Shown here in pieces: positions 6,396 to 60,884 of a stretch of DNA of 64,000 nt. Every line of letters starts with the position of its first letter. Within the stretch, counting starts at the first letter, position 1. The stretch lies in the IMG/VR virus record IMGVR_UViG_3300025030_000039, positions 60,878-124,877 of that record. The stretch is one strand, 5' to 3'. Below the pieces are notes generated by a model that saw only the letters and a list, made by a program, of their open reading frames with translations, searched no databases and had not been told where the DNA came from. The position numbers and the translations under genes were made by a program. The stretch comes from a virus.

Positions 6396-6860
6396 TTAAC
6401 CTTCAAGATTTTGTGAAGCATTAATATCTCCAATATAAGCTTCTACATCATCATCTGTCAATTCAGCTTGTTTACCGTTTTCTAATTGTACTAAATATTT
6501 TCCTGTATCTTCACTCCATGAAATAATATCGCCTACTAATCCATCAGCTTTACATTTAACTTTAGATCCAGGTATTAAATGACTTTCACCAACCAATTTT
6601 TGAGTTTTAGCTCCTAATCTATTATTATCATCATTAACTATAACTTCAATTTCAGTTTCATTAAATTGTTGTTGTCCACTATCATCTAAACTAACATTAT
6701 ATTTTTTAATATCTTCACTCCAAGAGTTTAAATATCCTAATTGACCACTAGCTTTTACTTTTATTCTAGTACCTGGTGTTATAACATCGGCTTCTTTAAC
6801 CAAATGCTGATTAGTTTTAACGTCGTTTACAAACTCTTCAAATAATTTTACGTATTCCAT
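6396..6860 (-). CDS. Hypothetical protein with a leader-like N-terminus (MEYVKLFEEFVND) and two tandem copies of a roughly 50 aa small beta-domain.
   Basis: Internal duplication TRIKVKASGQLGYLNSWSEDIKKYNV / SKVKCKADGLVGDIISWSEDTGKYLV. Confidence 0.45.
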   Translation of the reverse strand: MEYVKLFEEFVNDVKTNQHLVKEADVITPGTRIKVKASGQLGYLNSWSEDIKKYNVSLDDSGQQQFNETEIEVIVNDDNNRLGAKTQKLVGESHLIPGSKVKCKADGLVGDIISWSEDTGKYLVQLENGKQAELTDDDVEAYIGDINASQNLEG

Positions 6861-7272: not shown

Positions 7273-7557
7273 TTATTTTGTCATATCTATTCCTAATAAA
7301 TCTTTAGCTAATTTTAATGCATCAGGTTCATCTACTATTCCACTCTTAACTAATTCAGAATAGTATTTAGGATTTTCTGTTAAATGATCGATTGCAACTT
7401 CTTTTGCTGTTGATTTATCACTAGAGTGTTCAGCTTCTACTGCAATTCCAACTTCTAATTCATTTTTATCGATAGTTGATTCATCAGTATCATCACCTTT
7501 ACCTCCAATTAAAACTTGTTCATTAATAAATTCTAAATAAGTTTTTACAAATTCCAT
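7273..7557 (-). CDS. Hypothetical small acidic protein with a leader-like N-terminus (MEFVKTYLEFINEQ).
   Basis: ORF; N-terminal similarity to the MKYILEYEEFLLE leader family. Confidence 0.4.
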   Translation of the reverse strand: MEFVKTYLEFINEQVLIGGKGDDTDESTIDKNELEVGIAVEAEHSSDKSTAKEVAIDHLTENPKYYSELVKSGIVDEPDALKLAKDLLGIDMTK

Positions 7558-7567
7558 ATTATTGTTT

Positions 7568-9529
7568 TTATTTATATATTTCTTTTTTTAATTCATCATA
7601 AAATGAATGTAATACTGTTGGAACCATAACTTTAAATACTTCATAATTATCATCTTTAATTGCAGTTCTAACAACCGATGCACTAATATCTTCATCTGCT
7701 CTTTTAATTTCAAATAACTCAAAATCATTTAGCATATTTAATTCATCTTTATATTTATCTATTTGTATTTTGAATGTTTTTAATCTATCTGTACCTACTC
7801 CCCATTTTAGAGGTTCATATTCAGGACGTAATGAATTAAATATTTTATCTACTGATGCTGAATCAATAATAAATACATTTTCTAGAAACTCATAATTTAA
7901 TTTTAGTGCATCAAACATTCTTAATTGTAATTCTTTATCGAAAGGATTTAAATCTTTATCTTGTGAAGTCTCTTTACCTTTAACTATAAAAATTATAACA
8001 GGGAGTTTATTTGTCATATGTAATTTATTTAAAACTTTTATATGACCTAATGTAAAAGGTTGAAATCTTCCTACAAATATATTTACTTGTTGTTTTCCAT
8101 GTTCTTTATCTTTAATATTTAATGCTTCGAATGTTGAATCTTCTAATTTTTCTATATTACTTTCTAATTTATTTAATTCTTTTTTTAAAAAATCAATAGT
8201 TGGAATATTTATAGGATTACTTTCTATTGTTATAGTTATACTATTTTCAGAAACGTCTTCCTCTTCTTCATATATATTATCATTCATTTCTTTCATAATA
8301 ATATAATCACCAAAAGTTTTAAATGAATCATCAGATTCAGCTTCTGTTGCATCTTTTATTTTTCCTATTATAATATTAATTTCTTTAATAATAGGTTCTG
8401 TTAATACATTGGTAGTCTTTTTTCTCTTTTTTCTTAATGATGATAAAAATATTTTAAATAAATCTTTTAATTTATCTGATGAATTTAAATATTCTTTTGT
8501 CTTTTGATTTTTAATTAATTCAATATTTAAATCAAATTCTTTCTTTTTTGCAAAACTTGGAGTTTCAAAATCTATATCTTTGTATTTATCTATATTTTTA
8601 TTAACATACTTATTAAATATATCACAAATAATTTCAATATATCTTTCATCAGGTTTAATAGATAAAATGCCAACAGATAAAACGGATTTATTTCTTTCTA
8701 TAAATTCAATTATATCTAATAATATTATTGAATAAATATCTTTAATAGTTCTAGTATCTTGTACTTTATTTTTCTCTTGTATATTTTTTATAATTGGATC
8801 TATTATTTTTCCAATATATGTTTTATCATTGTGCTCATCAAAAAATTTAAATACAATTGAATCTATAGGTTTAATTAAATCATTATTTAATGTAGTTTTT
8901 TTAAGAGATGGATTTAAAATACTTATAATATATTTAGTAAATGAATCTGTTCCAAATATATCACCTAAAGAATCTTTATCAGTTTTTATAAAATCTTTTA
9001 TTTGATTTTTTTGCTTATCATTTAATACACCTTCAAAAATAATAGGAGGACCTTGTACTTCTAGTTTATTAGCCCATTCATTTAAAATTTTAGAATTATC
9101 TATAACTTTAATTGTTTTATTTTGATTATTTTTTACCAATATATGTGTTAATACTAAATTATTAGTAGGTAAATTATCATAAACAATATTTACTGGACTT
9201 TTATTTACAAAATATTGAAAACTAAATCTCCAATTATCTGGTATTTCTTTTAAAACAGATTTATCAATTTTATTAACAAAATGATTTCTAACAGATTCAT
9301 AATATATCATTAATGTTCTATCTATAATACTTAATGGAATTCTATCATCCCTTTTAAATATATCTATTGGGTCATTAACGATATTTTTTCTATCAGCATC
9401 TATTTTTTGAACATATACTGTAGATCCATCTAAATTTTCACTTATAATCGTATATTTTTCGAGTAATTCTTCAATAAACTTATTACCCTGTTCTTTATAA
9501 ATATCTTTTATTTCTTGTATTCCTGCCAT
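7568..9529 (-). CDS. 653 aa protein. The C-terminal roughly 190 aa form an NMN/NaMN adenylyltransferase-like (HxGH cytidylyltransferase) domain. The N-terminal roughly 450 aa are unassigned.
   Basis: NIFVGRFQPFTLGHIKVL matches the GRFQPFHxGH signature of NadM/NMNAT-type adenylyltransferases. The N-terminal part contains ISENLDGSTVYVQK, weakly reminiscent of the KxDG nucleotidyltransferase motif but lacking the Lys. Confidence 0.55.
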   Translation of the reverse strand: MAGIQEIKDIYKEQGNKFIEELLEKYTIISENLDGSTVYVQKIDADRKNIVNDPIDIFKRDDRIPLSIIDRTLMIYYESVRNHFVNKIDKSVLKEIPDNWRFSFQYFVNKSPVNIVYDNLPTNNLVLTHILVKNNQNKTIKVIDNSKILNEWANKLEVQGPPIIFEGVLNDKQKNQIKDFIKTDKDSLGDIFGTDSFTKYIISILNPSLKKTTLNNDLIKPIDSIVFKFFDEHNDKTYIGKIIDPIIKNIQEKNKVQDTRTIKDIYSIILLDIIEFIERNKSVLSVGILSIKPDERYIEIICDIFNKYVNKNIDKYKDIDFETPSFAKKKEFDLNIELIKNQKTKEYLNSSDKLKDLFKIFLSSLRKKRKKTTNVLTEPIIKEINIIIGKIKDATEAESDDSFKTFGDYIIMKEMNDNIYEEEEDVSENSITITIESNPINIPTIDFLKKELNKLESNIEKLEDSTFEALNIKDKEHGKQQVNIFVGRFQPFTLGHIKVLNKLHMTNKLPVIIFIVKGKETSQDKDLNPFDKELQLRMFDALKLNYEFLENVFIIDSASVDKIFNSLRPEYEPLKWGVGTDRLKTFKIQIDKYKDELNMLNDFELFEIKRADEDISASVVRTAIKDDNYEVFKVMVPTVLHSFYDELKKEIYK

Positions 9530-9560: not shown

Positions 9561-10826
9561 TCAAAAACGAAGCAAACCCATAATTTGGTTTACAGGAGAA
9601 AAGGATCCCGTTAATTTATATCTCTTTGAATTATAAACAAATACAATTCCTTCAGAAGGCATTATTGAATCAAATCCACCTAAAGCTTCTATTTTATTTA
9701 AGTTTAATTGTAATACATCTAATAATCCTTTTCCACCAGTATTTTCTATTTCTTTAATCTTTTTATCTAAATTATCTTTAATAACTTTCACTGTATCATT
9801 AGAATTAACGGATAAAAATCCACTTATATTTTTTAAAACAGTAACACCTAATTCTGTAAAAATACTCTCAAATTTATCTCTTATATTTTGTCTAATATTT
9901 TTAATTGAATCAGATTTTTCTAGCATTTTAATAAATCCTAAATTATTTAGTTCTAATTCTTTTATTGATATAATAGTTCCATTTTTAAAAGCTAAACGTT
10001 TAGCTGCTCGTTCAAACACATCTCCGTCAAAATCAGTTTCATGTTTAGCAATACTATTTAAAATAATTTTTTTCCAAAATTCTATATGCCATTCTTCTAA
10101 TGTAGAATTATCATTCATATCCATTGAATCTCTAATATCATCAATTTTTTTATGAAAATAATTTTGTTTAACAGAAAAATCGTTATGCTTAGAAATATTT
10201 AAATAATTTGGTTCATGAACTTTAAATATGCTATTAATACTTTTATTTACTAAATTTATTACATCAACAATATTTTTAGATATTTTATTATTTTCATCAA
10301 TTGGATTTCCATCAAAATCATAACTTATAAATCCATGCATAATTATTTTAGGTGAATCATATACAATAACATTTGGAGAACTTGGATATATTATTTCAAT
10401 ATTCATAAACTTTTTACCTGTTTCAAATTCAACATCTAATATTGATTGATCTATTTTAGAAAATATTTTATTTAATTCGGTTATAGCTAATGAAAATGCT
10501 TTAGATAATTCTCCTCTATTTTCAAATTTTTGTATTAATTGATCTACTGTTAAAGCATCTTTACCATAATTTTTTAAATGACCTTTATTTCTTGCTGTAA
10601 ATAATTGTCCATGTTTCCATGTTATTGATAAAGCATATCCATCCAATTTTTCAGATATTAATTCTTCTTTATCTAAATATCCTCCAAGTGCTCTATCAAC
10701 TATCGTTTTTAAATCTTTAAATGTTAAACTATAATCTTCAAAAGGATGATTTAAATGTCCGTAACTTCCACCTTCTAAAATTAAATTTTCATTTAAAAAT
10801 TCTTCATAAGATTTTAAAAATTTCAT
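9561..10826 (-). CDS. RNA ligase, Rnl1-like, 421 aa, with a leader-like N-terminus (MKFLKSYEEFLNENL).
   Basis: Motif I EKLDGYALSI (KxDG); FMNIEIIY resembles motif III; SEGIVFVYNSKRYKLTG resembles motif IV (EGxV) plus the motif V Lys. Confidence 0.6.
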   Translation of the reverse strand: MKFLKSYEEFLNENLILEGGSYGHLNHPFEDYSLTFKDLKTIVDRALGGYLDKEELISEKLDGYALSITWKHGQLFTARNKGHLKNYGKDALTVDQLIQKFENRGELSKAFSLAITELNKIFSKIDQSILDVEFETGKKFMNIEIIYPSSPNVIVYDSPKIIMHGFISYDFDGNPIDENNKISKNIVDVINLVNKSINSIFKVHEPNYLNISKHNDFSVKQNYFHKKIDDIRDSMDMNDNSTLEEWHIEFWKKIILNSIAKHETDFDGDVFERAAKRLAFKNGTIISIKELELNNLGFIKMLEKSDSIKNIRQNIRDKFESIFTELGVTVLKNISGFLSVNSNDTVKVIKDNLDKKIKEIENTGGKGLLDVLQLNLNKIEALGGFDSIMPSEGIVFVYNSKRYKLTGSFSPVNQIMGLLRF

Positions 10827-10834
10827 TTATAAGA

Positions 10835-11320
10835 TTATTTTATGCATTCAATTATTAAATCACATTTATGTGGTCTAATTTCTAAATTGTTTAAATATTC
10901 AATTTCACTTTTTCTATAATCAGTTTCAAATGCATTTTTAAAACCAATATCTTTAACAGTTCCTATTAAATGATCAGCATCCCAAATATATTGATGTCCC
11001 CATTTTTTCATTCCTTCATTCATTAAATCAGCAGCACAAGAAGGAGTCCATCCTACTTCACTCCAATATTCTAAATCATTTTCTAAATATTTTGTTGCTA
11101 ATGTTTTTAAATTTGGCATACTCATTCTCATTCTACACCCAGGTTTTAAAACTCTAAAACATTCATTTAAAAAAGTGATAGCAGTTTCTTTGGGTAAATG
11201 TTCCATGAAGTGTTCAGAAAAAATACAATCAACTGAACTATCCTTATATGGTAATTTAGGAGCAGTCCAGTTGATTATATTTTTTTTATTAGCTTTATCT
11301 AAATTATGCCATCCATTCAT
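10835..11320 (-). CDS. Class I SAM-dependent methyltransferase-like protein (Methyltransf_11-like C-terminal motifs). The N-terminal glycine-rich SAM loop was not seen, so it is possibly truncated.
   Basis: LPYKDSSVDCIFSEHFMEHL and FRVLKPGCRMRMS match the acidic/hydrophobic motif and the RVLKPGG motif of type 11 methyltransferases. The ORF is only 161 aa and lacks the GxGxG motif. Confidence 0.45.
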   Translation of the reverse strand: MNGWHNLDKANKKNIINWTAPKLPYKDSSVDCIFSEHFMEHLPKETAITFLNECFRVLKPGCRMRMSMPNLKTLATKYLENDLEYWSEVGWTPSCAADLMNEGMKKWGHQYIWDADHLIGTVKDIGFKNAFETDYRKSEIEYLNNLEIRPHKCDLIIECIK

Positions 11321-11385: not shown

Positions 11386-12249
11386 TTACTTTTTTTTTGA
11401 ATATTCGTCGTTTAATTCTTCTAATCTATGTTGTTTATAAAAAGTTAAGGCATCTTTAGATTCCCAGTCAGGTAACATTGAATATGCTTTTTCATATATC
11501 ATATGAATATCAGATTCTGTATTTAATTTAGCAAATATTTTTTCATTAAGATGAGTATACTTTGTTAAAAATTTATCTACTTGATTACTATCAAATACTT
11601 TATCTTTTTTGCCTTTACATGCTTCTATAATTTTTGCATCAAAATCTTCTTTTACTTTGCTATCACCTTTCCATTCAGATTTAATTTCATCCCAGAATTT
11701 TTTCTTTTTTTCTGGATCTAATTGCATTGGAGAATTAACATTATATTTTTTTAATTTACTCTTAAAAAAATCTTTATATTCTTCTTCATTAATTACTGCT
11801 TCTTTTAATTGATCTTTTTCAATTGCATCAGGAACTTTTTGATCAGCTGCATTAGTTATTTTTTTATCAGCTTCAGTATTTACAACAACTGGATCAATTT
11901 TAATTTGATCAGTAGCAGTAGCTGGAGTTTCTTTTACAACATCAATTGGATCAGGAACTTTTTGATCAGCTGCATTAGTTATTTTTTTATCAGCTTCAGT
12001 ATTTACAACTTTAGGATCAATTTGGCCTTCAATTTTATTTGGAAGTTCAGCTTCTTTTTTCTTTGCAGTTAAACCTTTATGAATTTCATCATAAAATTTT
12101 TTTCTATCATCATCACTTAGATTACTTAAATCTTTAATTTGAAATGCTTTCATTACATCATTAAATATTCCTGCAATAGCATCAGCTTCAAGAATAGAAG
12201 TTTCTTTAAACTTATTATAAATGTCAGACATTTTACCGATTTTATTCAT
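11386..12249 (-). CDS. Hypothetical protein with an internal duplicated segment.
   Basis: ORF; the duplicated peptide VVNTEADKKITNAADQKVPD is encoded by a 60 nt direct repeat. Confidence 0.4.
   Translation of the reverse strand: MNKIGKMSDIYNKFKETSILEADAIAGIFNDVMKAFQIKDLSNLSDDDRKKFYDEIHKGLTAKKKEAELPNKIEGQIDPKVVNTEADKKITNAADQKVPDPIDVVKETPATATDQIKIDPVVVNTEADKKITNAADQKVPDAIEKDQLKEAVINEEEYKDFFKSKLKKYNVNSPMQLDPEKKKKFWDEIKSEWKGDSKVKEDFDAKIIEACKGKKDKVFDSNQVDKFLTKYTHLNEKIFAKLNTESDIHMIYEKAYSMLPDWESKDALTFYKQHRLEELNDEYSKKK
11829..12008 (-). repeat. 60 nt direct repeat in two copies at 11829..11888 and 11949..12008 (120 nt period) inside the coding sequence.
   Basis: tcaggaactttttgatcagctgcattagttatttttttatcagcttcagtatttacaaca occurs twice. 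Confidence 0.7.
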
Positions 12250-12270: not shown

Positions 12271-12870
12271 TTATATATCACCCGTTCGTATCAAATATTC
12301 CTTAATTATCTCTAATGTAGTTATTGATGGTCTCCAATATAATTTTATTTTACTTTCAATATTATCTAATAATGTATCATAATATTCATTTTTATTATGT
12401 ATTCTATTAGGAGCTGATGATATCCAATATTCTATATCATCAAAATTAAATGTTGATTGTGCACCATATAATATATGAAATTTATTTTCTAATTCTGTAT
12501 AAGCTTTATTAAATTTAATATCTTTTAATCTATTATTTAGTCTAATTAATTCGTCATATAATATTTCTAATGTTTTATCGACATCATGTTGTGTATTATT
12601 ATCTGCAATTGTGTGATACCTCAAAAAATTTCCTATTTTATCCCTATTTATATCAAATGGTATTTTCCAATCCGTATGAATATTAAATCCAATTTTTTTA
12701 CTTACTTCTTTGGGAGCATAATTTTGTTTTAAATCTATAGGAAACTTTCTTCCATTAACCAGCCATTTAAATGTTCCATCTTGTGATTTATTCACAATAT
12801 CTTTAACAAAAGATTCATCACTAATATTTGATTTATTTAAAAATTTTTCATATTCTAATATAAATTTCAT
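12271..12870 (-). CDS. Hypothetical protein with a leader N-terminus (MKFILEYEKFLNK).
   Basis: ORF; member of the conserved N-terminal leader family. Confidence 0.45.
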   Translation of the reverse strand: MKFILEYEKFLNKSNISDESFVKDIVNKSQDGTFKWLVNGRKFPIDLKQNYAPKEVSKKIGFNIHTDWKIPFDINRDKIGNFLRYHTIADNNTQHDVDKTLEILYDELIRLNNRLKDIKFNKAYTELENKFHILYGAQSTFNFDDIEYWISSAPNRIHNKNEYYDTLLDNIESKIKLYWRPSITTLEIIKEYLIRTGDI

Positions 12871-12895: not shown

Positions 12896-14410
12896 TTAAA
12901 ATTTTATATTTTGCATAGTGTATGAAAATTTTTGTTCTTTATAAATTTCTTTTCTAGCTTCAGCATGCTTAAACAAATAATTAACAAAAGTTTTGCCGTT
13001 TTCTAGTTTATATCGCATATCATCAACAAAATCAATTATAATTAATTTATCTTTTCTATTATGCAAACGTAATCCACGTCCGATACTTTGACGAATTATA
13101 ATTTCTGATTTAAAACTTTCTGTAAAAAATACATTATGTATATTAGTTATATTAATTCCGGTCGAAAAAGTTCCAAATGAAGCAACTAATAATCGTTTAT
13201 CCCCTACTTCCATTAATTTTTTATAATCTTCTCTTAAATCTTTATCTGTACCACCATCAACATAATATACATCTCCTTCATAAATATTTCTTAATAAATC
13301 ATAAAGTTTTTTACCATGTTCTATTCTATGAAATAATATTAAACTATTTTTAGTTGATTTTTTAATTACATTAGCAATAAATTTTAATCTCTTATTACTT
13401 TCTGCTACATAATCTTGTTCTAATTTAAAAACTTTTTTCCTTTCATCTTCATTAGATGATTTAGATAACCATAAAAATGCCTCTTTTTGTTCATCTGAAA
13501 CATAATCCATATAAATCATTTTTACTTCACATGGACTTATAAATCCTTTATTAATTAAATAATCTGCACTAATATTTGTAATTAATGGACCTGTATTAGA
13601 CATTAAATTATATCTATCTATTGTTTGTGGTTTAGGAATAGTTCCACTTACCCCGAAACGATAATCACAATGCCAACACCTATCTAGTATTTTACAGATT
13701 GACGAACTATTTGCTTTATGTGTTTCATCTATTATAACAATATTAAATTGTTTAAAATATTCTTCATCTTTTTTAACTAATGATTGATATGTTCCTATTA
13801 CGAGATTAGTATTTTCTTTTAATTTCATTCCAGAAAATATCTGTTGTATTTTAAGTGTTACTTTTTCATCAGTATTATAATCATTAAAATCTTCAGTTGC
13901 TTGTAATACTAAAGATACATTTGGAACTATTAATAATATTTTTTCAGCTACATCATATTCTAAAAGATATGCAATAACCATAAACACTATTAACGATTTA
14001 CCGGCACTAGTAGCTAATTCAGCTAAACATCTTCTATAACGTAATATTTTATATGCGGTATCAACTTGATAATCACGCGGCTTTTTTTCGTTACCTTCAA
14101 AAAATTTATCAACCCATTTATAAAATTCTTCTTTTTCAATATCTATATTGAATAATTTTATAGTATCAATTAATTTTAATGGTAAATTATGCTCTTTAAA
14201 AACTTCCATAACTTCCATCCATAAACCAGAAGGAAGTTTATTACCCTTAACAAAACAAACGTCCCCACTCCACACACCTCGCTTCACAAGTGGATGAAAT
14301 CTCCAATTATCTATACGTTTAGTAAAACTAAGCTTAAGTTGTTCATATTCATGTTCAGTTGCTTTAGTTATGTATAAATATCTTCTATCAGGACTTAATT
14401 GTAATTCCAT
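12896..14410 (-). CDS. SF2 DNA helicase (UvsW/DEAH-like).
   Basis: Walker A ATSAGKS, motif II IIDETH, motif III SGT and motif VI QSIGRGLR. Confidence 0.8.
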   Translation of the reverse strand: MELQLSPDRRYLYITKATEHEYEQLKLSFTKRIDNWRFHPLVKRGVWSGDVCFVKGNKLPSGLWMEVMEVFKEHNLPLKLIDTIKLFNIDIEKEEFYKWVDKFFEGNEKKPRDYQVDTAYKILRYRRCLAELATSAGKSLIVFMVIAYLLEYDVAEKILLIVPNVSLVLQATEDFNDYNTDEKVTLKIQQIFSGMKLKENTNLVIGTYQSLVKKDEEYFKQFNIVIIDETHKANSSSICKILDRCWHCDYRFGVSGTIPKPQTIDRYNLMSNTGPLITNISADYLINKGFISPCEVKMIYMDYVSDEQKEAFLWLSKSSNEDERKKVFKLEQDYVAESNKRLKFIANVIKKSTKNSLILFHRIEHGKKLYDLLRNIYEGDVYYVDGGTDKDLREDYKKLMEVGDKRLLVASFGTFSTGINITNIHNVFFTESFKSEIIIRQSIGRGLRLHNRKDKLIIIDFVDDMRYKLENGKTFVNYLFKHAEARKEIYKEQKFSYTMQNIKF

Positions 14411-14712
14411 TAAATTTTATTTTTACATTCTGTACATTCTATCTTTTTAATGCATTTTTTACAATCAAAATTGTCATCAAACACATCTATCCAATAATCT
14501 GCTTTAAAGGTAATAGAAATTTCTCCTTCTTTAAAATCAGTATCAACTTCACTTGCATATAATCCTTGAAATTCATAAGGTCCTATTTGAATAGGTTCTT
14601 TAGTTTTAAAAATACTTTCTTTATTATCAAAAATACTTTCTTTATTATCTTGCTTTTGAACTTCTATTATATTAACCCATTCTCTAAGAAAGTTATATAC
14701 TGTATTATCCAT
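14410..14712 (-). CDS. Hypothetical protein with a C-terminal zinc-ribbon-like Cys cluster.
   Basis: CKKCIKKIECTECKNKI at the C-terminus. Confidence 0.4.
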   Translation of the reverse strand: MDNTVYNFLREWVNIIEVQKQDNKESIFDNKESIFKTKEPIQIGPYEFQGLYASEVDTDFKEGEISITFKADYWIDVFDDNFDCKKCIKKIECTECKNKI

Positions 14713-15148
14713 GATGTTTAATATTTAATAAATATTTTCTGTTAGAAATAGATTTAGAAGTTCTTTTTAATATTAATGAGAGTTCTCGTGGATTTAAATT
14801 ACTATTTAAAATTTTTAAATCTTCTTTTAATGAAAATCTTTTAAATTTATTTTCGTTTATTTTTTTAATTAAATACTTTATTCTAGATTTTTTAGAATAT
14901 TCTTCTTTATGTATATCATAACTTCTTTTCTGTATAGCATGCCAAGTATCTTTATGTGTTTGTCTCCATTTATAATATATCTTATTAGATTGTTCTTTAT
15001 TATTATCTCTCCAATTTTTAAAATTATTATAAGGAAAATTTGGGTCTTCTAATTTCTTTTTTTCATAAGACTTTTTCGAATATATTCGTTGATATCCAGG
15101 ATGCTTTTTTCTCCATTCTCTTTGATATTCTGCACTAGTTTGTTTCAT
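14705..15148 (-). CDS. Hypothetical basic (Lys/Arg/Tyr-rich) protein.
   Basis: ORF; composition only. Confidence 0.4.
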   Translation of the reverse strand: MKQTSAEYQREWRKKHPGYQRIYSKKSYEKKKLEDPNFPYNNFKNWRDNNKEQSNKIYYKWRQTHKDTWHAIQKRSYDIHKEEYSKKSRIKYLIKKINENKFKRFSLKEDLKILNSNLNPRELSLILKRTSKSISNRKYLLNIKHHG

Positions 15149-25435: not shown

Positions 25436-26314
25436 TTAAAAATTAGTTGTTTTAAATGATTTTGCTTGTGCTTCTAAATCTTTTATATTATTTCCTTCTG
25501 TTAAAGAATTATTAATATTCGTAGAATAATTTAAAGCTTCTCTATCTTTTTCAATCAATACTTGTTGATCCTTAGTTAATTTATCAGCATCTTTAGCTGA
25601 TAATTTAGGCTTAACACTATCTAATAATTGTTGTAAATTTTTATTTGATTCTGTTAAACTCTTTAAATATTTTTTAAGAGTAATTATTTCTTGATCTTTT
25701 TTAGATGATATAGTATTTTGTTCTACTACAGTTAAACTTAAATCATTAAGTATAGTTTCACTATTATTTTTTAAATTACTATAATCTCTTTTAAGGGTAT
25801 TAGTAGGTATTTCATTAAATGGAAAAAACTTACCTGTGTATAAAACAGACTCATCAGATTCTTCACCATTAGTTGTTAATTTAGATGATATGTAAAAATT
25901 ATTATCTTTAAAAGCTAATATTTTTTTAGATTGATCTTTATTAATCTTGAACAATACTTGTCCATGTTTAGGATCTATTCCATTACTTTCTTTAATATTC
26001 TGAATTTTAACTTCACTGTTATTACTTAAAAAGCTTAAATATAAATCGCCAGTGTTAGTTAAATCTATTGGAATATCTTCTCCATTTTTTTCTTGTACTA
26101 AATTGAATAAAAAATAATCATCAAATGGAGAAATTCCAATATAAGCTTCTCCTTGATAATAATAAGTTTCATTATCACTTAGATTAGCAACTTGTGCTAC
26201 ATTATAATTTAAAGGCTTTTCATTTAAATTAGATAAATTTAAATTACTGTCTTTAGCCATAGCTTGTATATTTGCTAAGGAATTATTTCTTTGTATTTTG
26301 TTTGACAAACTCAT
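25436..26314 (-). CDS. Hypothetical protein, probably structural.
   Basis: ORF within the late module. Confidence 0.35.
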   Translation of the reverse strand: MSLSNKIQRNNSLANIQAMAKDSNLNLSNLNEKPLNYNVAQVANLSDNETYYYQGEAYIGISPFDDYFLFNLVQEKNGEDIPIDLTNTGDLYLSFLSNNSEVKIQNIKESNGIDPKHGQVLFKINKDQSKKILAFKDNNFYISSKLTTNGEESDESVLYTGKFFPFNEIPTNTLKRDYSNLKNNSETILNDLSLTVVEQNTISSKKDQEIITLKKYLKSLTESNKNLQQLLDSVKPKLSAKDADKLTKDQQVLIEKDREALNYSTNINNSLTEGNNIKDLEAQAKSFKTTNF

Positions 26315-27722
26315 TTTTATTTTCCTTTTTAATTTTATCTAGTTTAACTTTTGAAAAACTTACTTTTATATTTACTCTATCTCTATAGACATTTACAAAT
26401 TCTGTTTTAATTTGAATTTTTGAATTATTAAGAGATGTTTCATTTTGGCTTAAAACTGAATTTTCAGAATTAATTTTTTCAATTTTATTATATATGTGTA
26501 CTATTTTAGGTGATACACCCATATTTAATTGTTGCATTTTAGGACCATATTTTTTAACATTAAATGATGTTAAAGTAGATGTTTTTATTATTTGAGTATT
26601 ATCTACTCTATTTATAATTCTTAATGCATAATTAATAGTATATGATACTGCAGAGGATGCATTCATTACAACAGGTCTATATATAACAGGCTTATCCCAA
26701 TATTCTGTTTGTATTAAAGTTTGACGAGTTGTTTCAACAAATTCTGTATCTATTTGTTCCTCTAAAAAAAATTCATGAAACACCATATAATTAGAATTTG
26801 GCTGATTATTTAATGTTGTAATAAAATCTTCAAATATAATACCGTTATATTCACCATATAATTCATAATAATCGCCTGATTCAGATTCTTTTATTTTTGC
26901 TACTAATTGTTCAAATTCATCTTTTTGATTAAATGATACAGAATTATTTTCTCTTACAGAAAAATATGTAAATCCATTTTCCTTTTTAGATTCAAATATT
27001 TCTAATAATTTAATATCTATCATTGTAGACTTTAATAAACCTACACCTAAATTTCTATTAGTTGGAGCTATATCAGTTTGAACGTTTTTAGATGTTAACC
27101 TTGAATTTAATGTATCACTACTAATAGGAGGATTTGCTGTATTAGGGCTTAATAAATAATTTACAGCTGGAATTTTAACCTCAATATATGAAGAATATTC
27201 TTTTTCACCAACTATAAATGGATTTGAATTAAATGTTTGATAACTATCAGTTTTTCTATATACTAACGACATCAAATTAATAACTGCTCCACCTCTTTGT
27301 GTAATAGTAATATTAAAGATATATCCATCTAAGTCACTAAATGTAAAACCTGTTTGTAAATGTATTTTAATTGTATCATACTTTATATTAGTTGTAGTAG
27401 GACTATCAAAATTTTGAACTAAATTTGTAGTCTTAGTTAAATTAGAATCATAATCTATATAATTTATAGGTAAATCCTTATTTAAATAAACATATTTTGA
27501 ATATTTATTATTTACAGGAATTGCACTTCTATCTCTTATATTACCCATGTCAATAGGTGCACTATCACTATTAAAATAATAGTTAGTGTTGGTATATCCA
27601 TTCGATAATATTTCAACTGGATGAGAATCTACTTCATATGATTCTGGGTTAAGAGTATCAGTATAAATATATTCTATTAATATTTGTTTATCTATTTGTA
27701 CATATTTTGAAGATCTAGCCAT
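26283..27722 (-). CDS. Hypothetical protein, probably structural.
   Basis: ORF within the late module. Confidence 0.35.
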   Translation of the reverse strand: MARSSKYVQIDKQILIEYIYTDTLNPESYEVDSHPVEILSNGYTNTNYYFNSDSAPIDMGNIRDRSAIPVNNKYSKYVYLNKDLPINYIDYDSNLTKTTNLVQNFDSPTTTNIKYDTIKIHLQTGFTFSDLDGYIFNITITQRGGAVINLMSLVYRKTDSYQTFNSNPFIVGEKEYSSYIEVKIPAVNYLLSPNTANPPISSDTLNSRLTSKNVQTDIAPTNRNLGVGLLKSTMIDIKLLEIFESKKENGFTYFSVRENNSVSFNQKDEFEQLVAKIKESESGDYYELYGEYNGIIFEDFITTLNNQPNSNYMVFHEFFLEEQIDTEFVETTRQTLIQTEYWDKPVIYRPVVMNASSAVSYTINYALRIINRVDNTQIIKTSTLTSFNVKKYGPKMQQLNMGVSPKIVHIYNKIEKINSENSVLSQNETSLNNSKIQIKTEFVNVYRDRVNIKVSFSKVKLDKIKKENKNEFVKQNTKK

Positions 27723-55001: not shown

Positions 55002-55532
55002 CTATAAAAATCCAAAATCATCAGCATTATACAAATGCTCGTATTTATTTTTTATTTTACTACTAACACTTAACTTTCTTATAAATTCATACTTTAAATA
55101 TAAATTGGGATCTTCACTCAACCAATTATCAACTATACTATCTATATCATTTCCAATTATATCTAATTGCTCTATCTTTAAAAATTCTTTTGGTAATTTT
55201 TTAAGATTATTATTATTTAAACTTAATATTCTTAATTTTTTTAACTGACTTATCTTTTTAGATATCAACGTTAATTTATTATTATTTAAATCTAATACGA
55301 CTAAATTTTTAAGTTTTAATATGTCATCAGGTACTGATGACAATTGATTATCAAATAAATAAAGTTGTATTAAATTTTTAAATTTATATACTCTATCTGG
55401 AATAGTTGTTATTTGATGTCCGTTTAAATATATTACATCATCATTTATATTTTTTTCAGCTATAATACTCATAGCTATATCAGGTCCTTTATTTTCTAAT
55501 AAAAATTCTTCATATTCTAAAATGTATTTCAT
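55002..55532 (-). CDS. Leucine-rich repeat (LRR) protein with the leader N-terminus MKYILEYEEFLLEN.
   Basis: Five or more LxxLxLxxNxL repeats: LIQLYLFDNQLSSVP, LKNLVVLDLNNNKLT and LKKLRILSLNNNNLKKLP. Confidence 0.7.
   Translation of the reverse strand: MKYILEYEEFLLENKGPDIAMSIIAEKNINDDVIYLNGHQITTIPDRVYKFKNLIQLYLFDNQLSSVPDDILKLKNLVVLDLNNNKLTLISKKISQLKKLRILSLNNNNLKKLPKEFLKIEQLDIIGNDIDSIVDNWLSEDPNLYLKYEFIRKLSVSSKIKNKYEHLYNADDFGFL
55494..55532 (-). repeat. Copy of the 39 to 41 nt leader-encoding DNA repeat, one mismatch relative to the other two copies.
   Basis: ttctaataaaaattcttcatattctaaaatgtatttcat. Confidence 0.7.
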
Positions 55533-56140
55533 TTTCCACGTCTTATATTAGTTAATATTCTCAAATCATTTGCACTATGTTGTGTATAATTTAAATTAAA
55601 TTTCTTAGAAAATATTTTAAAATCAAAAGGATCAGAATCTCCGCCACTATGAATTATTGTATACTTTAAAATTAATTCTGCCAAGTCTTTAGATGTACTA
55701 GCGTCAATTATTTTTCTTTCTAAATATAATCTTATTTGATTATCCATTAATACACTATCTAAAGCTACTAATAATTGTTGCCTACTTCTTTCAGGCCCTA
55801 TATCATCAAATCTTTGAAGCAATCTCATACTAGTTACTTTTTCTTTGAAAGGTCTTATTTGTTTTGTATAATATAACAAAGTAACTTCTAATTTATTTTC
55901 ATCTTTGTTTCCTTCTTTTTCTTTTGCTTTTCTTAAAACTTCATCAAATTCTTTTTGCGATGCAGTTCCTTTAACAGTATTAGGAGTTCTAAATGAGTTA
56001 CTTGATTTTGATTTATTTTTATCATTAGAAGTGTTTTTAAACTTATTCGCATATTCGGGTGGAATATAACGTCCACTATATCTTATTTTTTCATCATCTG
56101 CTTCTAATAAAAATTCTTCGTATTCTAAAATGTATTTCAT
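55529..56140 (-). CDS. Hypothetical protein with the leader MKYILEYEEFLLEA.
   Basis: ORF; leader family member. Confidence 0.45.
   Translation of the reverse strand: MKYILEYEEFLLEADDEKIRYSGRYIPPEYANKFKNTSNDKNKSKSSNSFRTPNTVKGTASQKEFDEVLRKAKEKEGNKDENKLEVTLLYYTKQIRPFKEKVTSMRLLQRFDDIGPERSRQQLLVALDSVLMDNQIRLYLERKIIDASTSKDLAELILKYTIIHSGGDSDPFDFKIFSKKFNLNYTQHSANDLRILTNIRRGK
56100..56140 (-). repeat. 41 nt leader-encoding DNA repeat, identical to the copy at 58273..58313.
   Basis: gcttctaataaaaattcttcgtattctaaaatgtatttcat. Confidence 0.8.
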
Positions 56141-56195
56141 ATGCTTACTCTATTTTAATTATATATTTTGAATATATAATTAAAAATAGAAGGTT

Positions 56196-57197
56196 ATGAA
56201 GTTTATATTAGAGTATGAAGAATTTTTGTTTGAGAATACTAGATATGTAGATGCTGAAAAAGACTTTTTAAAAACTAAAAGAATAGATAAAAAGACTTGG
56301 GATTATTTAATAACAAATATAAGTAATAAATATGTTTATTGGGCTGTAAGAGAGTATGTTTTAAATAAAGAAAATAATAGAATTGGTAATAAATTAGAAG
56401 ATTATGTTAATATATCACGAATGTATGATATCAAAGGAAATACATTTGCTAAAAATGAAAGAGATTTATATAATTTTTCAGATTTTAATAAAAATAACGA
56501 TTATACATTTAATAAAGTAAAAGATTTATATAATATTAATAACAGTTTAAAAATCAAACCAAAAGATATATTTAAAACTAGAACAGATTTAGTTGAAATA
56601 GGAAGTAATATTTTATATGAAGATAAAGAAGGTAATATTGTAGTTGAAGCATTAAATAGAGCTGCTGATTTATATTGGGGAAGTTGGTATAAAAAAAGAG
56701 AAGGTGCATTAGTTATAGATAACTGTATGACAAGTGAACCTTCATCTGATATAAAATATTTAAAAGATGTTCCAGAGGGTGGTAGACTTTATATTATATT
56801 ACCTAAAGAACCGATAATTATATTAAGAAGATTATTTATAATGGAATATGAAGATGCATGGGGATTCGTAGGTCATCAAGATTTTTCGATTGAAGAAACT
56901 AGTTATAAAAATATGTTAATTAAAAAATATCATGCTTTATATAAAGAATTAAATAAAAAATTAAATTATAAAAATGAAGAATTATATAATATAATTAAAA
57001 GACTTTTTGAGTTAGATAGTAAACATGTAATCTATGATTACATTTATAATGGTTATAATGAATTAGATATTAATATAGAATTTAATGAATTTATTAAACA
57101 ATTAAACAATAATTTTAATCATATACCATCATATATGTCAGAGTATTTTATAGAATTATATAATTATTATCATGGATTAACTAATAAAATAGTTTAA
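56196..57197 (+). CDS. Hypothetical protein with the leader MKFILEYEEFLFEN. It is the only plus-strand gene in the window.
   Basis: ORF; leader family member. Confidence 0.45.
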   Translation: MKFILEYEEFLFENTRYVDAEKDFLKTKRIDKKTWDYLITNISNKYVYWAVREYVLNKENNRIGNKLEDYVNISRMYDIKGNTFAKNERDLYNFSDFNKNNDYTFNKVKDLYNINNSLKIKPKDIFKTRTDLVEIGSNILYEDKEGNIVVEALNRAADLYWGSWYKKREGALVIDNCMTSEPSSDIKYLKDVPEGGRLYIILPKEPIIILRRLFIMEYEDAWGFVGHQDFSIEETSYKNMLIKKYHALYKELNKKLNYKNEELYNIIKRLFELDSKHVIYDYIYNGYNELDINIEFNEFIKQLNNNFNHIPSYMSEYFIELYNYYHGLTNKIV

Positions 57198-57296
57198 AAA
57201 TTAATTGAACATAAGTAATAAAAATAGAAAATGATATAAAAAAGTATTTACTTAAAGGTTATAATAAAATATATTTTAAATTATAACATTTAAAAA

Positions 57297-58313
57297 TTAT
57301 TTTCTTTGTTTGTATTTATTTTTTATATAATCATTAATATCTTCTTCACTCATACCTTTACGTCTTAAAATATTTTTCATAACATGTGTACGTTTTTCTT
57401 CTTTACTCATATTTTTTAAATTTACTGTTGGTGCTGGACCAGATTTAATTTGTTTATATTTAAATTTAATATAGTCGTTAATCTCTTCATCACTTGCGCC
57501 TTTACGTCTTAAATGAGTTTTAATAGTAGATATATTGAAATTTGATCTTTCTTCATCATTAAGAGATGAAGAAAGATTATTAAATTTACTCATAGTGTAT
57601 TCATTATATTTTTTAACGACTTCTTTAGCCATATTTAATGTCGGTTCATTAGCTAACCAAACATATAAATTATGTTTGGTTTTAGAAAATTCATGCTTAT
57701 CTATAACTTTAGAACTAAAATATTGTTCTACTTCTTTTAATGTTTTAGGATCTTTAGATAAAGAATATGAATCATAAAGCTTTAATATTTTAGTACATAT
57801 AATATTAAATTTAGGACTTAAATTAAAAAATACACGGCTTGGATATGCATTACCATTGTTTTGTTCTATTTCTCTGTATATAGTTTGGAGTGCAAGAAGT
57901 ACCGCTTCTTCTTGCGATAATCCATCATATTTAGGAGATGTATCTTTAAGTATATTACGTCTATCTATAAAATCGCTAGAAAGTTCATTTAGTATTTTTT
58001 CAGTTAATTCTTTAGTAGGGGCTTCATTTGTTTTTAAAGAATATAATGGTTTATTAGGCACTAAATCGCTATTTAAAAAATATTTAAATATTAAACGTAA
58101 TATTGCAGCATAATTTTTAATATTTTCTTTTTTAAGAAACTCTATAGGTTTAAACTCTTCGTTACTTAAATAAATTTTATTTGATTTTTTAAAAAGTTCA
58201 TATATTTTGGTTAAACTTTTGTATAAATCATTTATATTTTGTTGTTTATTTTTTTCTTTACGACCTGTATTAGCTTCTAATAAAAATTCTTCGTATTCTA
58301 AAATGTATTTCAT
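57297..58313 (-). CDS. Hypothetical protein with the leader MKYILEYEEFLLEAN. Its C-terminus contains two copies of a (E/D)EINDYIK(F/N)KYKQ motif.
   Basis: ORF; leader family member. Confidence 0.45.
   Translation of the reverse strand: MKYILEYEEFLLEANTGRKEKNKQQNINDLYKSLTKIYELFKKSNKIYLSNEEFKPIEFLKKENIKNYAAILRLIFKYFLNSDLVPNKPLYSLKTNEAPTKELTEKILNELSSDFIDRRNILKDTSPKYDGLSQEEAVLLALQTIYREIEQNNGNAYPSRVFFNLSPKFNIICTKILKLYDSYSLSKDPKTLKEVEQYFSSKVIDKHEFSKTKHNLYVWLANEPTLNMAKEVVKKYNEYTMSKFNNLSSSLNDEERSNFNISTIKTHLRRKGASDEEINDYIKFKYKQIKSGPAPTVNLKNMSKEEKRTHVMKNILRRKGMSEEDINDYIKNKYKQRK
58273..58313 (-). repeat. 41 nt leader-encoding DNA repeat, identical to the copy at 56100..56140.
   Basis: gcttctaataaaaattcttcgtattctaaaatgtatttcat. 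Confidence 0.8.
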
Positions 58314-58693
58314 TTATTTAATTCATTTAAGTTAAAGTATCTAAACCCTCTAAATCCTTTCATAGGAATTGGCTCTATTTCATTAAATTGTCCTGATCTT
58401 TCTATAAATTTACCACTCCAATTTTTTCCTGTAGTAGAACATGTAAAAGATTTTTCCTTTATTCCTGTTATTTTCATCCATCCCACAACATTACCATTAT
58501 AATTTAGGTAACATTTATTTCCTACTATATCTTTTTTAGGAAGAAATGGAACTTTAAAATTTAAATTATTAGATCCATTTTTAACAGAATCTAATTCTTT
58601 TCTATATTCATTCCAATCTATATTAGAAGGTATAGTTATTATTATATCACTCTTATCAGTAACAACTTCTTCATATTCTTTTATATACTTCAT
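58310..58693 (-). CDS. Hypothetical protein with the leader variant MKYIKEYEEV.
   Basis: ORF. Confidence 0.4.
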   Translation of the reverse strand: MKYIKEYEEVVTDKSDIIITIPSNIDWNEYRKELDSVKNGSNNLNFKVPFLPKKDIVGNKCYLNYNGNVVGWMKITGIKEKSFTCSTTGKNWSGKFIERSGQFNEIEPIPMKGFRGFRYFNLNELNK

Positions 58694-58707
58694 TACTTAA
58701 ATTATTT

Positions 58708-59340
58708 TTAGATAAATTTTATGTTTAAATATCTCAGTTCTGCTGCTTTAGCAAAATCTCTATCTGTTGATTTATCACCTATTATTCTTGAATTAGCTTT
58801 ATCTATTTTTCCATATTTTTCTATAGTTTTAGTAATAGCTCCTATATTAGGTTTTCTCATAGGATCGGTTCTTTTAGTTGTTATACTATAGAAATAATCT
58901 AATAATGGAATTCCTTTTGCTGCTAATGATTTTTTAATTTTATTCATTTTATATTTAAAATCATCTTCATTAACATATCCTGATTCAATTCCTCCCTGAT
59001 TAGTTACAATAATTATTTTATAATTTTTTTTAACCATTATTTTTAAATATGCAATACAATTACTTTTTAATATCCAATCATTTTTATCCTCTGAAAATGT
59101 TCCTCCTGATGCAGGTTCAATTAATGTATGATCTAAATCTACAAAAATATATTTATTACCAAAAATTTCAGTTCTTATATCATCTTTATTTTCAGTATCA
59201 TATGTTATTTCCTTTTGAATATCTAGAGTTTTTTCCTCTGCATCTTTCTTTATAATTTTTTTCTTTTTCTTTCTTCTAAAAAGTCTTTGAAAAAAATTAT
59301 CTTCATTCAAAAAATCATCATATGTTTGTATATATTTCAT
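58708..59340 (-). CDS. HAD-IIIA family phosphatase (HisB-N/GmhB/PNK-phosphatase-like) with the leader variant MKYIQTYDDFLNE.
   Basis: IFVDLDHTLI (DxDxT motif I), IIVTNQGGIESGY (motif II, IIIA-type) and RIIGDKSTD (motif IV). Confidence 0.65.
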   Translation of the reverse strand: MKYIQTYDDFLNEDNFFQRLFRRKKKKKIIKKDAEEKTLDIQKEITYDTENKDDIRTEIFGNKYIFVDLDHTLIEPASGGTFSEDKNDWILKSNCIAYLKIMVKKNYKIIIVTNQGGIESGYVNEDDFKYKMNKIKKSLAAKGIPLLDYFYSITTKRTDPMRKPNIGAITKTIEKYGKIDKANSRIIGDKSTDRDFAKAAELRYLNIKFI

Positions 59341-59351
59341 ATTTTTATAAT

Positions 59352-59675
59352 TTAAGTTAATCCACTATGAATTTTATCATATATAGGTTTTTGTAAAATT
59401 TTCCAATTAATATCTGGATTCTTTTCTTTGATTTTATTTAAAATTTTATCTATTCTTTTATTTAATTCATTAGAAGGTTCATCATTTTTCCAATAATCAT
59501 CATTTAAAGAAACATTATATATTTTATCTGCTTGCATTTCATCTTCTTTAGTAACTACTATATTTTCATAATCTGGTATTAACTCTTTAGCATATTTTAT
59601 AAATTTATCATTTTGTTCATTTAGTTCTTCGGAACTACATGCTATATACTCTTCATACTCTTTTATATACTTCAT
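59352..59675 (-). CDS. Hypothetical protein with the leader variant MKYIKEYEEYIA.
   Basis: ORF. Confidence 0.4.
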   Translation of the reverse strand: MKYIKEYEEYIACSSEELNEQNDKFIKYAKELIPDYENIVVTKEDEMQADKIYNVSLNDDYWKNDEPSNELNKRIDKILNKIKEKNPDINWKILQKPIYDKIHSGLT

Positions 59676-59678
59676 TAT

Positions 59679-60884
59679 CTATAATTTTATTATATCAAAT
59701 TCAAAATTCAATCCAGCATCTAAACAAGCTTTTCTTTTCAATTCATTAACTTCTTTATTCTTATTATACGTATATACACTCTTTACTTCAATTATCTTAT
59801 TCTCACTAACTATATAAATATCTGGATAATAACGATGCTCTTTACCATCAATTGTAATATATATTACTTTCCCTATATATCTTTCAATATCTTTATTCTC
59901 AATCATTATATCACTCTCATCATATCCCATCTCAAACAATTTATCCAATGCTTGTGGTTCATAGCCCTGCACTCTAGTTATTTTACCAGAAGGCAATTCG
60001 TAACCTTTAAATCTAAATGCATTCATCATTGCTCTTTCAAATATAACTAAATCTTTCATTTGATGATCTACTCCATATCTTTCAATTAATGTTTCTTTAA
60101 TTTTTTCACGAATAATTGATGATTTAAATATCTGATCTACACCATATCTTTCAATTAATGTATTTTTTATTTTTTCTTTTATTTCATCAATATTTAATTT
60201 TAATGAACAATCTACATTATATCTTTTCATTAGTGTTTCTTTTATTTTTTTAGTTATACCTTCCTTTTTATGTCCATAAATTTTATCTTTAGTTTCATTA
60301 CATTTATTTATAACTTCTTTTACTTTCCAATTATGATCAACTCCATGCTTTTCTAAATAATTTTTTTTATATACTTCTCTAACAGTATTTGATTCAAATG
60401 GAGTTTTAAAACCATATTTTTTAATATTTGTATTTTCAATTTTTTTTCGAAATTCAGGATGTTGAATTGGTGCCTCAACTCCATATTTTTCTAACATAGT
60501 TTTTTTATACTTTTTTGCCCTTTTAATATAATGATTAGGATCATTCTTTTTTGTATTAACTATCTCATTGTACATATTACTATTAATTTTACAAATTTTA
60601 CTACAATACTTTTGATATCCTAAAGCTCTTCCTTTAAATCCTAATTCATTTTCTTTACATATAGGACAAATTGAAATATTTTGTACTTTATTAATGTAAT
60701 TAAATAATTTTTGAGAAAATTTAAAATCTTTATCTTTAAAATACTTATTATGATATTCTAATATTATTTTGAACTCTTTATTAAGATTTATTTCAAACCA
60801 GCTTTCAGCAGTATTAGCAGCTTTAGTTGCTTTTGAATAATAATATGACATTTTTTCTTCATCTAAAATTATTATACTTTCCAT
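59679..60884 (-). CDS. Homing-endonuclease-like protein of 401 aa with a Cys cluster, about six KIKETLIERYGVD-type repeats and a C-terminal PD-(D/E)xK-like domain. Paralogous in architecture to 2165..4108.
   Basis: ICPICKEN...CSKICK; repeats TMLEKYGVEAP, NIKKYGFKTP, LIERYGVDQ and LIERYGVDH; C-terminus YYPDIYIVSENKIIEVKS. Confidence 0.55.
   Translation of the reverse strand: MESIIILDEEKMSYYYSKATKAANTAESWFEINLNKEFKIILEYHNKYFKDKDFKFSQKLFNYINKVQNISICPICKENELGFKGRALGYQKYCSKICKINSNMYNEIVNTKKNDPNHYIKRAKKYKKTMLEKYGVEAPIQHPEFRKKIENTNIKKYGFKTPFESNTVREVYKKNYLEKHGVDHNWKVKEVINKCNETKDKIYGHKKEGITKKIKETLMKRYNVDCSLKLNIDEIKEKIKNTLIERYGVDQIFKSSIIREKIKETLIERYGVDHQMKDLVIFERAMMNAFRFKGYELPSGKITRVQGYEPQALDKLFEMGYDESDIMIENKDIERYIGKVIYITIDGKEHRYYPDIYIVSENKIIEVKSVYTYNKNKEVNELKRKACLDAGLNFEFDIIKL

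Follow-up and report, generated by a model that had tools for sequence, protein, structure and literature searches.

The capsid targeting sequences (CTS) of bacteriophage T4 are propeptides of 10-19 residues; in the internal protein IPIII, targeting depends on positions 4 and 7 and processing on positions 8 and 10, and the gp21 protease cleaves after L/I-x-E (PMC9026906). We analyzed a 64,000-nucleotide stretch of viral DNA (hereafter the window) in which the gene at 9561 to 10826 encodes a ligase-like protein that opens with a leader similar to these. The window corresponds to positions 258381-322380 of LR756500.1, the unannotated 462,018-bp record of an uncultured phage (24% G+C, 626 genes); genome-wide counts refer to this full record, and coordinates marked "record" are its own. 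Judging from the sequence, this highly divergent enzyme, similar to RNA ligases, is probably injected into the host along with the DNA. To the whole reading, namely an active ligase-type adenylyltransferase whose leader is cleaved and which is packaged and injected with the DNA, we give an even chance.

A CTS-like leader on a ligase-like gene

The original prediction of an RNA-ligase-like open reading frame (ORF) with a leader at this position was confirmed: the ORF encodes 421 residues and opens with MKFLKSYEEFLNE. Its features, and the gene that follows it, are:

9561 to 10826, minus strand: ligase-like gene, 421 residues, ATG start, N-terminus MKFLKSYEEFLNENL, a stand-alone member of its family
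10788 to 10826, minus strand: leader MKFLKSYEEFLNE (residues 1-13), a propeptide resembling a T4 CTS, the predicted cut following L11-N12-E13
10743 to 10772, minus strand: family-specific motif GGSYGHLNHP (residues 19-28), directly after the leader; consensus EGGAxGHMxHP
10638 to 10652, minus strand: motif I, EKLDG (residues 59-63), with K60 the predicted AMP-accepting lysine
9666 to 10178, minus strand: all-helical insert of ~170 residues (about 217-387), between motif IIIa (H164) and motif IV
9615 to 9653, minus strand: motif IV, EGIVF (residues 392-396), and the motif V lysine K404 (YKLTG)
7568 to 9529, minus strand: adjacent gene, 653 residues, no leader, 31 nucleotides downstream of the ligase-like gene

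As read from the T4 record, the N-termini of IPIII and IPII are both MKTYQEFIAE. Residues Y7, F10, L11 and E13 of the leader correspond, with the same spacing, to T4 Y4, F7, I8 and E10, i.e. to all four mapped positions; the leader holds three more residues after Met-Lys. A strict leader pattern was found in 11 ORFs of the window and 27 of the genome, in each case exactly at the initiator methionine. In ORFs totaling 127,326 residues, the core [YF]x[ED][FY][LIV]xE occurred 19 times, starting within the first 12 residues in 16 of these cases; such an occurrence is far beyond chance. In 18 of the 27 tagged ORFs, [LIVF]xE directly ends the leader. The 27 proteins are mutually unrelated and include six leucine-rich repeat (LRR) proteins, an R2K ATP-grasp, a HAD phosphatase, a DUF5661 protein, the ligase-like protein and many members of no recognizable family.

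Synonymous codons were highly variable inside the leader of the tagged ORFs, which indicates selection on the leader peptide and not on the DNA. A role as a DNA- or RNA-level element, such as a translation signal or a recombination site, was ruled out by this free variation. The leader codons were also seen to favor rare G/C-ending forms, with AAG at Lys2 in 9/25 (10% genome-wide) and TAC at Tyr3 in 8/22 (7% genome-wide).

T4-type head machinery is encoded in the same genome. A gp20-like portal (phmmer 4.8e-33), a Peptidase_S77 prohead protease (6.3e-11) fused to a long [LI]xE-rich region, and a Gp23-family capsid protein (Pfam 8e-34) were identified, and the three genes lie side by side. The terminase large subunit (TerL) was present in at least three pieces (record 193332-197824).

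In the mechanism that we infer, from enzyme activity and substrate to cleavage, packaging and ejection, the leader would act as a T4-type capsid targeting sequence and bind the prohead scaffolding core, and the S77 (gp21-like) prohead protease would cut after Leu-Asn-Glu13. The mature enzyme, starting five residues before the GGxxGHxxHP motif, would be retained inside the capsid, be ejected with the DNA into the host, and rejoin broken nucleic acids ahead of any phage gene expression. Catalysis would depend on the motif I lysine K60 and on E144, E392 and K404, as in an adenylyltransferase of the polynucleotide ligase type.

Motifs, predicted fold and class of the protein

The KxDG motif EKLDGYALSI and the EGIVF motif, both pointed out in the original prediction, lie at residues 59-68 and 392-396 and are kept across homologues. 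In an alignment of 22 diverse homologues E59, K60, D62, G63, E392, V395, F396 and K404 were invariant; E144, T406 and G407 were also invariant in the family alignment, and R79, N80, K81, H164 and G393 were invariant or nearly so in diverse family members. Within the GGSYGHLNHP motif, G19, G23 and H24 were invariant, and G20 and H27 were kept in at least 90% of the sequences. Motif III (E144, in NIEI) and motif IIIa (H164) follow motif I and precede motifs IV and V. The ligase motif set I, Ia, III, IIIa, IV and V is complete, and one family-specific N-terminal motif is added to it; the naming of the motifs rests on residue order and on hhalign output that was in register and non-significant. 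The protein stops 17 residues past K404 and has no OB domain and no C-terminal domain.

No meaningful match was returned when the 421-residue protein was searched against Pfam (E<=1), PHROGs, NCBIfam and PDB sequences, the lone hint being a 12-bit LigA match across the KxDG region. T4 RnlA and RnlB, used as phmmer queries against all ORFs of the genome, did not retrieve it. When the family profile was compared by hhalign to T4 Rnl1 and Rnl2, the probabilities were non-significant (0.2% and 1.5%, respectively); in these non-significant alignments the motif I and motif III regions were in register with those of T4 Rnl1 (K99) and Rnl2 (K35).

The AlphaFold (AF2) model, built from 55 sequences, had a pLDDT of 87.7 and a pTM of 0.86, with residues 1-22 as its sole disordered part. 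Foldseek ranked T4 Rnl1 at the top, weakly (E 1.1e-3, TM about 0.2). In a structure comparison listing, with ~180 residues aligned at 13-16% identity, NgrRnl (Rnl5) scored 8.6, T4 Rnl1 and TbREL1 8.3 each, Trl1 8.2, T4 Rnl2 8.1 and Rnl3 types 7.2-7.4; the values for DNA ligases were 5.5-6.8 and those for capping enzymes 5.6-5.9. On the basis of this comparison and of the Foldseek ranking, the modeled protein is well supported as an adenylyltransferase of the ligase (covalent nucleotidyltransferase) superfamily, with RNA ligases as its nearest solved structures. The earlier label of an "Rnl1-type RNA ligase" was therefore only partly upheld: motifs and fold agree with the superfamily, but an assignment to Rnl1 in particular is not supported, since no profile match was significant and the order of the domains is different.

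As to the substrate, the model makes RNA more likely, because the nearest folds belong to RNA ligases and an OB domain is lacking. To our knowledge, all DNA ligases possess an OB domain. The protein was also considered as the replicative DNA ligase of the phage; this is unlikely, as a LigA adenylation domain is encoded elsewhere in the genome and the ligase-like protein has no OB domain. The ORF of that NAD-dependent DNA ligase adenylation domain (record 358389-359237) ends at 282 residues and is followed by a homing-endonuclease-like ORF (record 357317-358330), which by eye seems paralogous to a 401-residue ORF of the window (59679 to 60884); a mobile element has probably interrupted the LigA gene.

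Relatives, gene order and the case for packaging

A word-indexed search found 64 homologues of the ligase-like protein, and a profile search of the family retrieved 2,652 clusters at E<=1e-3 (1,304 at E<=1e-30); at least 577 loci were found in IMG/VR. The stand-alone form is uncommon, and in most members the ligase is the C-terminal domain of a protein of 600-1,900 residues. Seven long members carried a CTP_transf_like domain (HIGH-type, similar to NMN adenylyltransferase and hereafter NMNAT-like), four of them also an AAA_33/Zeta_toxin P-loop kinase and one a Zn-protease domain.

Of the 42 family loci whose sequence extends at least 4 kb downstream of the family gene, 41 had TerL and the portal immediately following on the same strand, and the head protease came next wherever the contig extended that far. 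In one such contig (L037), PHROGs profiles identified TerL (2e-48), portal (1e-70) and protease (3e-41), with an endolysin upstream. The order ligase, TerL, portal was also kept in the huge phage LR756508 and in a cultured phage of Microcystis, Mel-JY01, which encodes a fused form of the protein (WWT39297.1). The one exception, a 242-kb relative (L014), has the gene together with gp32, UvsW, DNA polymerase and RNR, followed by the partner gene, as in the window.

This gene order also bears on the possibility that the packaged enzyme acts on DNA, sealing nicks, cohesive ends or restriction breaks of the incoming genome, and thus serves anti-restriction or genome integrity. A gene placed beside terminase and portal in most relatives and within the DNA replication block in the window phage would suit such a role, as would the finding that the only recognizable DNA ligase of the genome is the NAD-dependent LigA, whose gene is interrupted; proteins injected by T4 are known to counter restriction (PMC3012670). 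The protein, however, has no OB domain and ends 17 residues after motif V, and we consider a DNA substrate unlikely.

The leader itself recurs outside this genome. The strict leader DNA pattern had no matches over IMG/VR, and a relaxed pattern matched 11 loci there, all of them in relatives of the window phage. In one of these relatives (L105), the ligase orthologue (32% identity) starts with MKTRILNFNRFITE, keeps EKTDG, EGIVF and KLTG, precedes the partner gene, and is flanked by at least six ORFs starting with MKHI(K/Q)L(Y/F)E(E/Q)F(L/V/I)NE. Further stand-alone members, from unrelated samples, start with MRILRFKEFLSE, MNKIKTFDDFISE, MDLLNFNDFKLVE and MTFLSFNNYITE. Since the L105 orthologue and these other members carry such starts, the combination of a ligase with a CTS-like N-terminus is recurrent and not an accident of a single genome.

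In other phages with a member of the ligase family, distinct shared N-termini were observed on small ORFs that cluster close to the head genes. These were MK(I/V)xExKLRxIIRxEIK in LR756508.1 (L016; 22829-39000) and MIKLKNI(I/M)xE in contigs of 35-54 kb, where one was on a P-loop kinase (L037, 17879-19749; L070, 6373-7107 and 19558-20013). Clade-specific leaders may be a general feature. Literature searches on the ligase family, on Mel-JY01 and on CTS-like leaders in huge phages and cyanophages gave nothing specific, and one leader-bearing protein, used as a tblastn query against cultured phages, had no match.

Taken together, the residue match to T4, the T4-type head machinery, the modularity of the leader, the head-module synteny of the relatives and the recurrence in orthologues make the reading of the leader as a capsid-targeting signal well supported by inference, if unproven. 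Several observations weigh against the overall reading. The T4 late-promoter box TATAAATA was not enriched upstream of the leader genes (2/26, vs 25/600 other genes), a comparison that told little. The stretch of the capsid protein that aligned to the T4 gp23 cleavage site has no obvious LxE, so that the specificity of the protease in this phage is assumed. The ligase-like gene lies in a replication and nucleotide-metabolism block (UvsW, DNA polymerase, RNR), outside the head module; neither its adjacent partner nor any of the canonical repair enzymes bears a leader; and the sequence-level ties to any named ligase family are non-significant.

One possible explanation that would accommodate some of these points is that the leader does not load the capsid at all, and is instead a tag for another shared partner, for a chaperone, or for timing or turnover; the ligase would then be cytoplasmic and work with its Rnl2-like/NMNAT-like neighbor during replication. 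The location in a replication module, the tight linkage to an untagged partner and the missing late-promoter signal in the box scan are in line with this scenario. It is nevertheless improbable, as all four mapped T4 CTS positions were matched, a T4-type protease, capsid protein and portal are present, the genes of the relatives are in the head module at 41 of 42 loci, and the leader is modular, being attached to unrelated folds.

Partner gene, repair enzymes and tagged proteins

The protein encoded by the adjacent gene (7568 to 9529) was predicted with a pLDDT of 86. Its N-terminal domain has an Rnl2-like ligase fold in which the motif I lysine is replaced by asparagine (ENLDG), and its C-terminal domain is NMN/NaMN-adenylyltransferase-like (GRFQPFTLGH). 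Lysine occupies the motif I position in only 86 of 121 homologues, one of which reaches Pfam RNA_ligase at 3e-5. The two neighbors were tried as paralogues, and BLASTP, hhalign and hmmsearch showed no relation between their ligase parts; homologues of the adjacent protein of ~1,100 residues were tried as fusions with the ligase-like family, and hmmsearch gave no match.

The fusions and the conserved adjacency show that two separate ligase-fold lineages are tied to NMNAT-like domains. This pairing could represent a new chemistry of either of two kinds. The NMNAT-like domain could adenylylate 5'-phosphate ends directly, for sealing by the lysine-less ligase domain, or it could supply or recycle NAD+ for the ligase during depletion of host NAD+. 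The same association, fused or adjacent in both lineages, would fit a protein that is not a polynucleotide ligase and uses lysyl-NMP chemistry for protein AMPylation, for end capping or for an NAD-linked reaction with the NMNAT-like domain, and known ligases have nothing that corresponds to the GGxxGHxxHP motif or to the helical insert. We regard such a function as very unlikely, as the full ligase motif set is invariant, and the kinases fused in the relatives match AAA_33/Zeta_toxin, like an HD-domain kinase of this genome.

The absence of a P-loop kinase from the window, noted in the original prediction, was borne out, as no ORF of at least 100 residues there contains a Walker-A motif. Two polynucleotide-kinase-type proteins were found elsewhere in the genome, both without the leader, alongside two canonical RNA ligases:

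record 114322-115278: Pnkp-like protein combining kinase and HAD, inside the tRNA island, no leader
record 25610-26704: PF09414 RNA ligase with an HNH domain (Pfam 6e-28), no leader
adjoining the HNH and PF09414 RNA ligase: protein with HD and P-loop kinase domains, no leader
record 362785-364089: second PF09414 RNA ligase (Pfam 3e-9), no leader

The HD-domain kinase clearly matched AAA_33/Zeta_toxin and the Pnkp-like protein did so weakly (E 0.0082); a faint PSTK match (0.0036) was found alongside the AAA_33/Zeta_toxin matches. The tRNA island extends over record 61-119 kb (L003 and L004), with 26 tRNA genes and a tmRNA (tag GNNAEMRMAA), and includes a tRNA with a CTA anticodon that ARAGORN called tRNA-Pyl (L004, 12652-12720).

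These proteins look like apparently complete, untagged repair sets that the genome already holds. A leader-tagged kinase was not found in the genome, and a leader-bearing P-loop kinase is present in the L070 contig. Because the kinases of the genome are without the leader, it is less likely that a complete pre-packaged T4-style kit is formed by the tagged ligase and the tagged HAD phosphatase, which are encoded 48 kb apart. Repair of tRNA fits loosely and is, speculatively, one possibility among several.

The HAD-IIIA 3'-phosphatase-like protein at 58708 to 59340 was found to carry the leader, as originally proposed (N-terminus MKYIQTYDDFLNED). It matched Pfam PNK3P at 2.4e-21 (76.6 bits, cut-off 22) and TIGR01662 HAD-IIIA at 7.7e-22 (77.9 bits, cut-off 44.6); its score against the DNA-3'-Pase equivalog was 62.7, under the cut-off of 107.65. 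Its gene belongs to a cluster of tagged genes, listed here with the other tagged genes of the window:

55002 to 59675, both strands: leader-tagged cluster of seven ORFs, including the HAD gene
55002 to 55532: tagged LRR protein
55529 to 56140: tagged ORF
56196 to 57197, plus strand: tagged ORF
57297 to 58313: tagged ORF
58310 to 58693: tagged ORF
58708 to 59340, minus strand: leader-tagged HAD-IIIA/PNK3P-type phosphatase, 210 residues, Lys-rich linker, DLDHT motif, start MKYIQTYDDFLNE
59352 to 59675: tagged ORF
6396 to 6860, minus strand: leader-variant ORF MEYVKLFEEFVND, just downstream of the ligase/partner gene pair
7273 to 7557, minus strand: leader-variant ORF MEFVKTYLEFINE, DUF5661, just downstream of the ligase/partner gene pair
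12271 to 12870, minus strand: leader-tagged ORF MKFILEYEKFLNK, upstream of the ligase-like gene

Among the tagged proteins, the six LRR members (Pfam LRR_8/LRR_4/LRR_14, down to 1e-33) would be of an unusual class for phage-injected cargo; they were located in the window at 55002 to 55532 and at record 13446-15077, 180972-181730, 198758-199531 and 331856-332545. A leader-tagged R2K-clade ATP-grasp (PF18299, 8.9e-7) is encoded just upstream of the window (record 254760-255749). Several ORFs situated just upstream of leader-bearing ORFs share the C-terminal tail NADDFGF(L/F)DN-stop, at record about 11.6-15.9 kb, 197.8-199.5 kb and about 323.0 kb, all outside the window. Some of the cargo, mainly the LRR set, may thus have a conserved C-terminal tail in addition to the N-terminal leader, an arrangement that would be reminiscent of T4 Alt, which is processed at both ends.

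Two further genes lie upstream of the ligase-like gene. The nearer, at 10835 to 11320 (minus strand), encodes a truncated-looking SAM methyltransferase of 161 residues that ends 8 nucleotides before the ligase-like gene and matches only the C-terminal half of the Methyltransf_11 profile (3.6e-9). The other, at 11386 to 12249 (minus strand), encodes a 287-residue protein with an internal direct repeat, VVNTEADKKITNAADQKVPD, in two copies.

Significance and comparison with known systems

What is new here is a ligase family, together with a putative capsid-targeting system of the T4 style that is much expanded. Should the tag function as in T4, at least two dozen different proteins would be loaded, including a ligase, a 3'-phosphatase-type enzyme, an ATP-grasp ligase and several LRR proteins, and the injected arsenal would be far richer than that known for T4. 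The ligase-like protein offers a first handle on an unnamed family of more than 2,600 protein clusters, without a solved structure, which is encoded beside the terminase and portal of many environmental phages, and the recurrent NMNAT-like partner points toward unexplored ligase chemistry. A virion-delivered ligase would, if true, be a new kind of immediate-early counter-defense against ribonuclease and nuclease defenses that strike before phage expression. None of the papers searched was found to describe a packaged ligase, which would therefore be new as far as that literature goes. A more far-reaching and doubtful scenario is that a large clade of tailed phages, mostly marine and freshwater, delivers with its genome a capsid-borne end-repair kit of P-loop kinase, NMNAT-like adenylyltransferase and ligase, either fused or separately tagged.

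In T4 RNA ligase 1 (gp63, RnlA; PF09511) the helical tRNA-binding domain follows motif V, whereas in the ligase-like protein the helical domain precedes motif IV and nothing comes after motif V; the GGxxGHxxHP motif and the N-terminal leader are additional. We know of no packaging of T4 Rnl1. Ligases of the Rnl2/Rnl5/REL1 type (PF09414) are represented in this genome by two members that Pfam recognizes, whereas the ligase-like protein is not recognized at all. With Pnkp (kinase-phosphatase-ligase, Rnl4), Trl1 and the baculovirus Pnk-ligase, the long relatives share an upstream P-loop kinase and a C-terminal ligase, but their middle domain is an NMNAT-like HIGH nucleotidyltransferase and not a phosphoesterase, their genes are beside terminase and portal, and the window protein is the ligase domain alone.

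The likeness to T4 IPII and IPIII (and to IPI and Alt) lies in a short N-terminal propeptide whose core, Y-x-E-F-[IL]-x-E, runs up to a gp21-type site and which is placed on unrelated cargo in a phage with gp20, gp21 and gp23 homologues. T4 has a handful of such proteins, in contrast to the 27 tagged ORFs here, whose predicted cargo includes a ligase fold, a HAD phosphatase, an R2K ATP-grasp and LRR proteins, none of them known as phage internal proteins. The survey of polyvalent proteins reported no association of their 2H phosphoesterase domains with RNA ligases and is silent on ligase domains in injected proteins (PMC5512222). Those proteins resemble the long relatives in being large and multidomain, in being encoded among portal and terminase genes, and in being predicted to be packaged and injected (PMC5512222); to their repertoire the present family would add the combination of a ligase fold with a kinase and an NMNAT-like domain.

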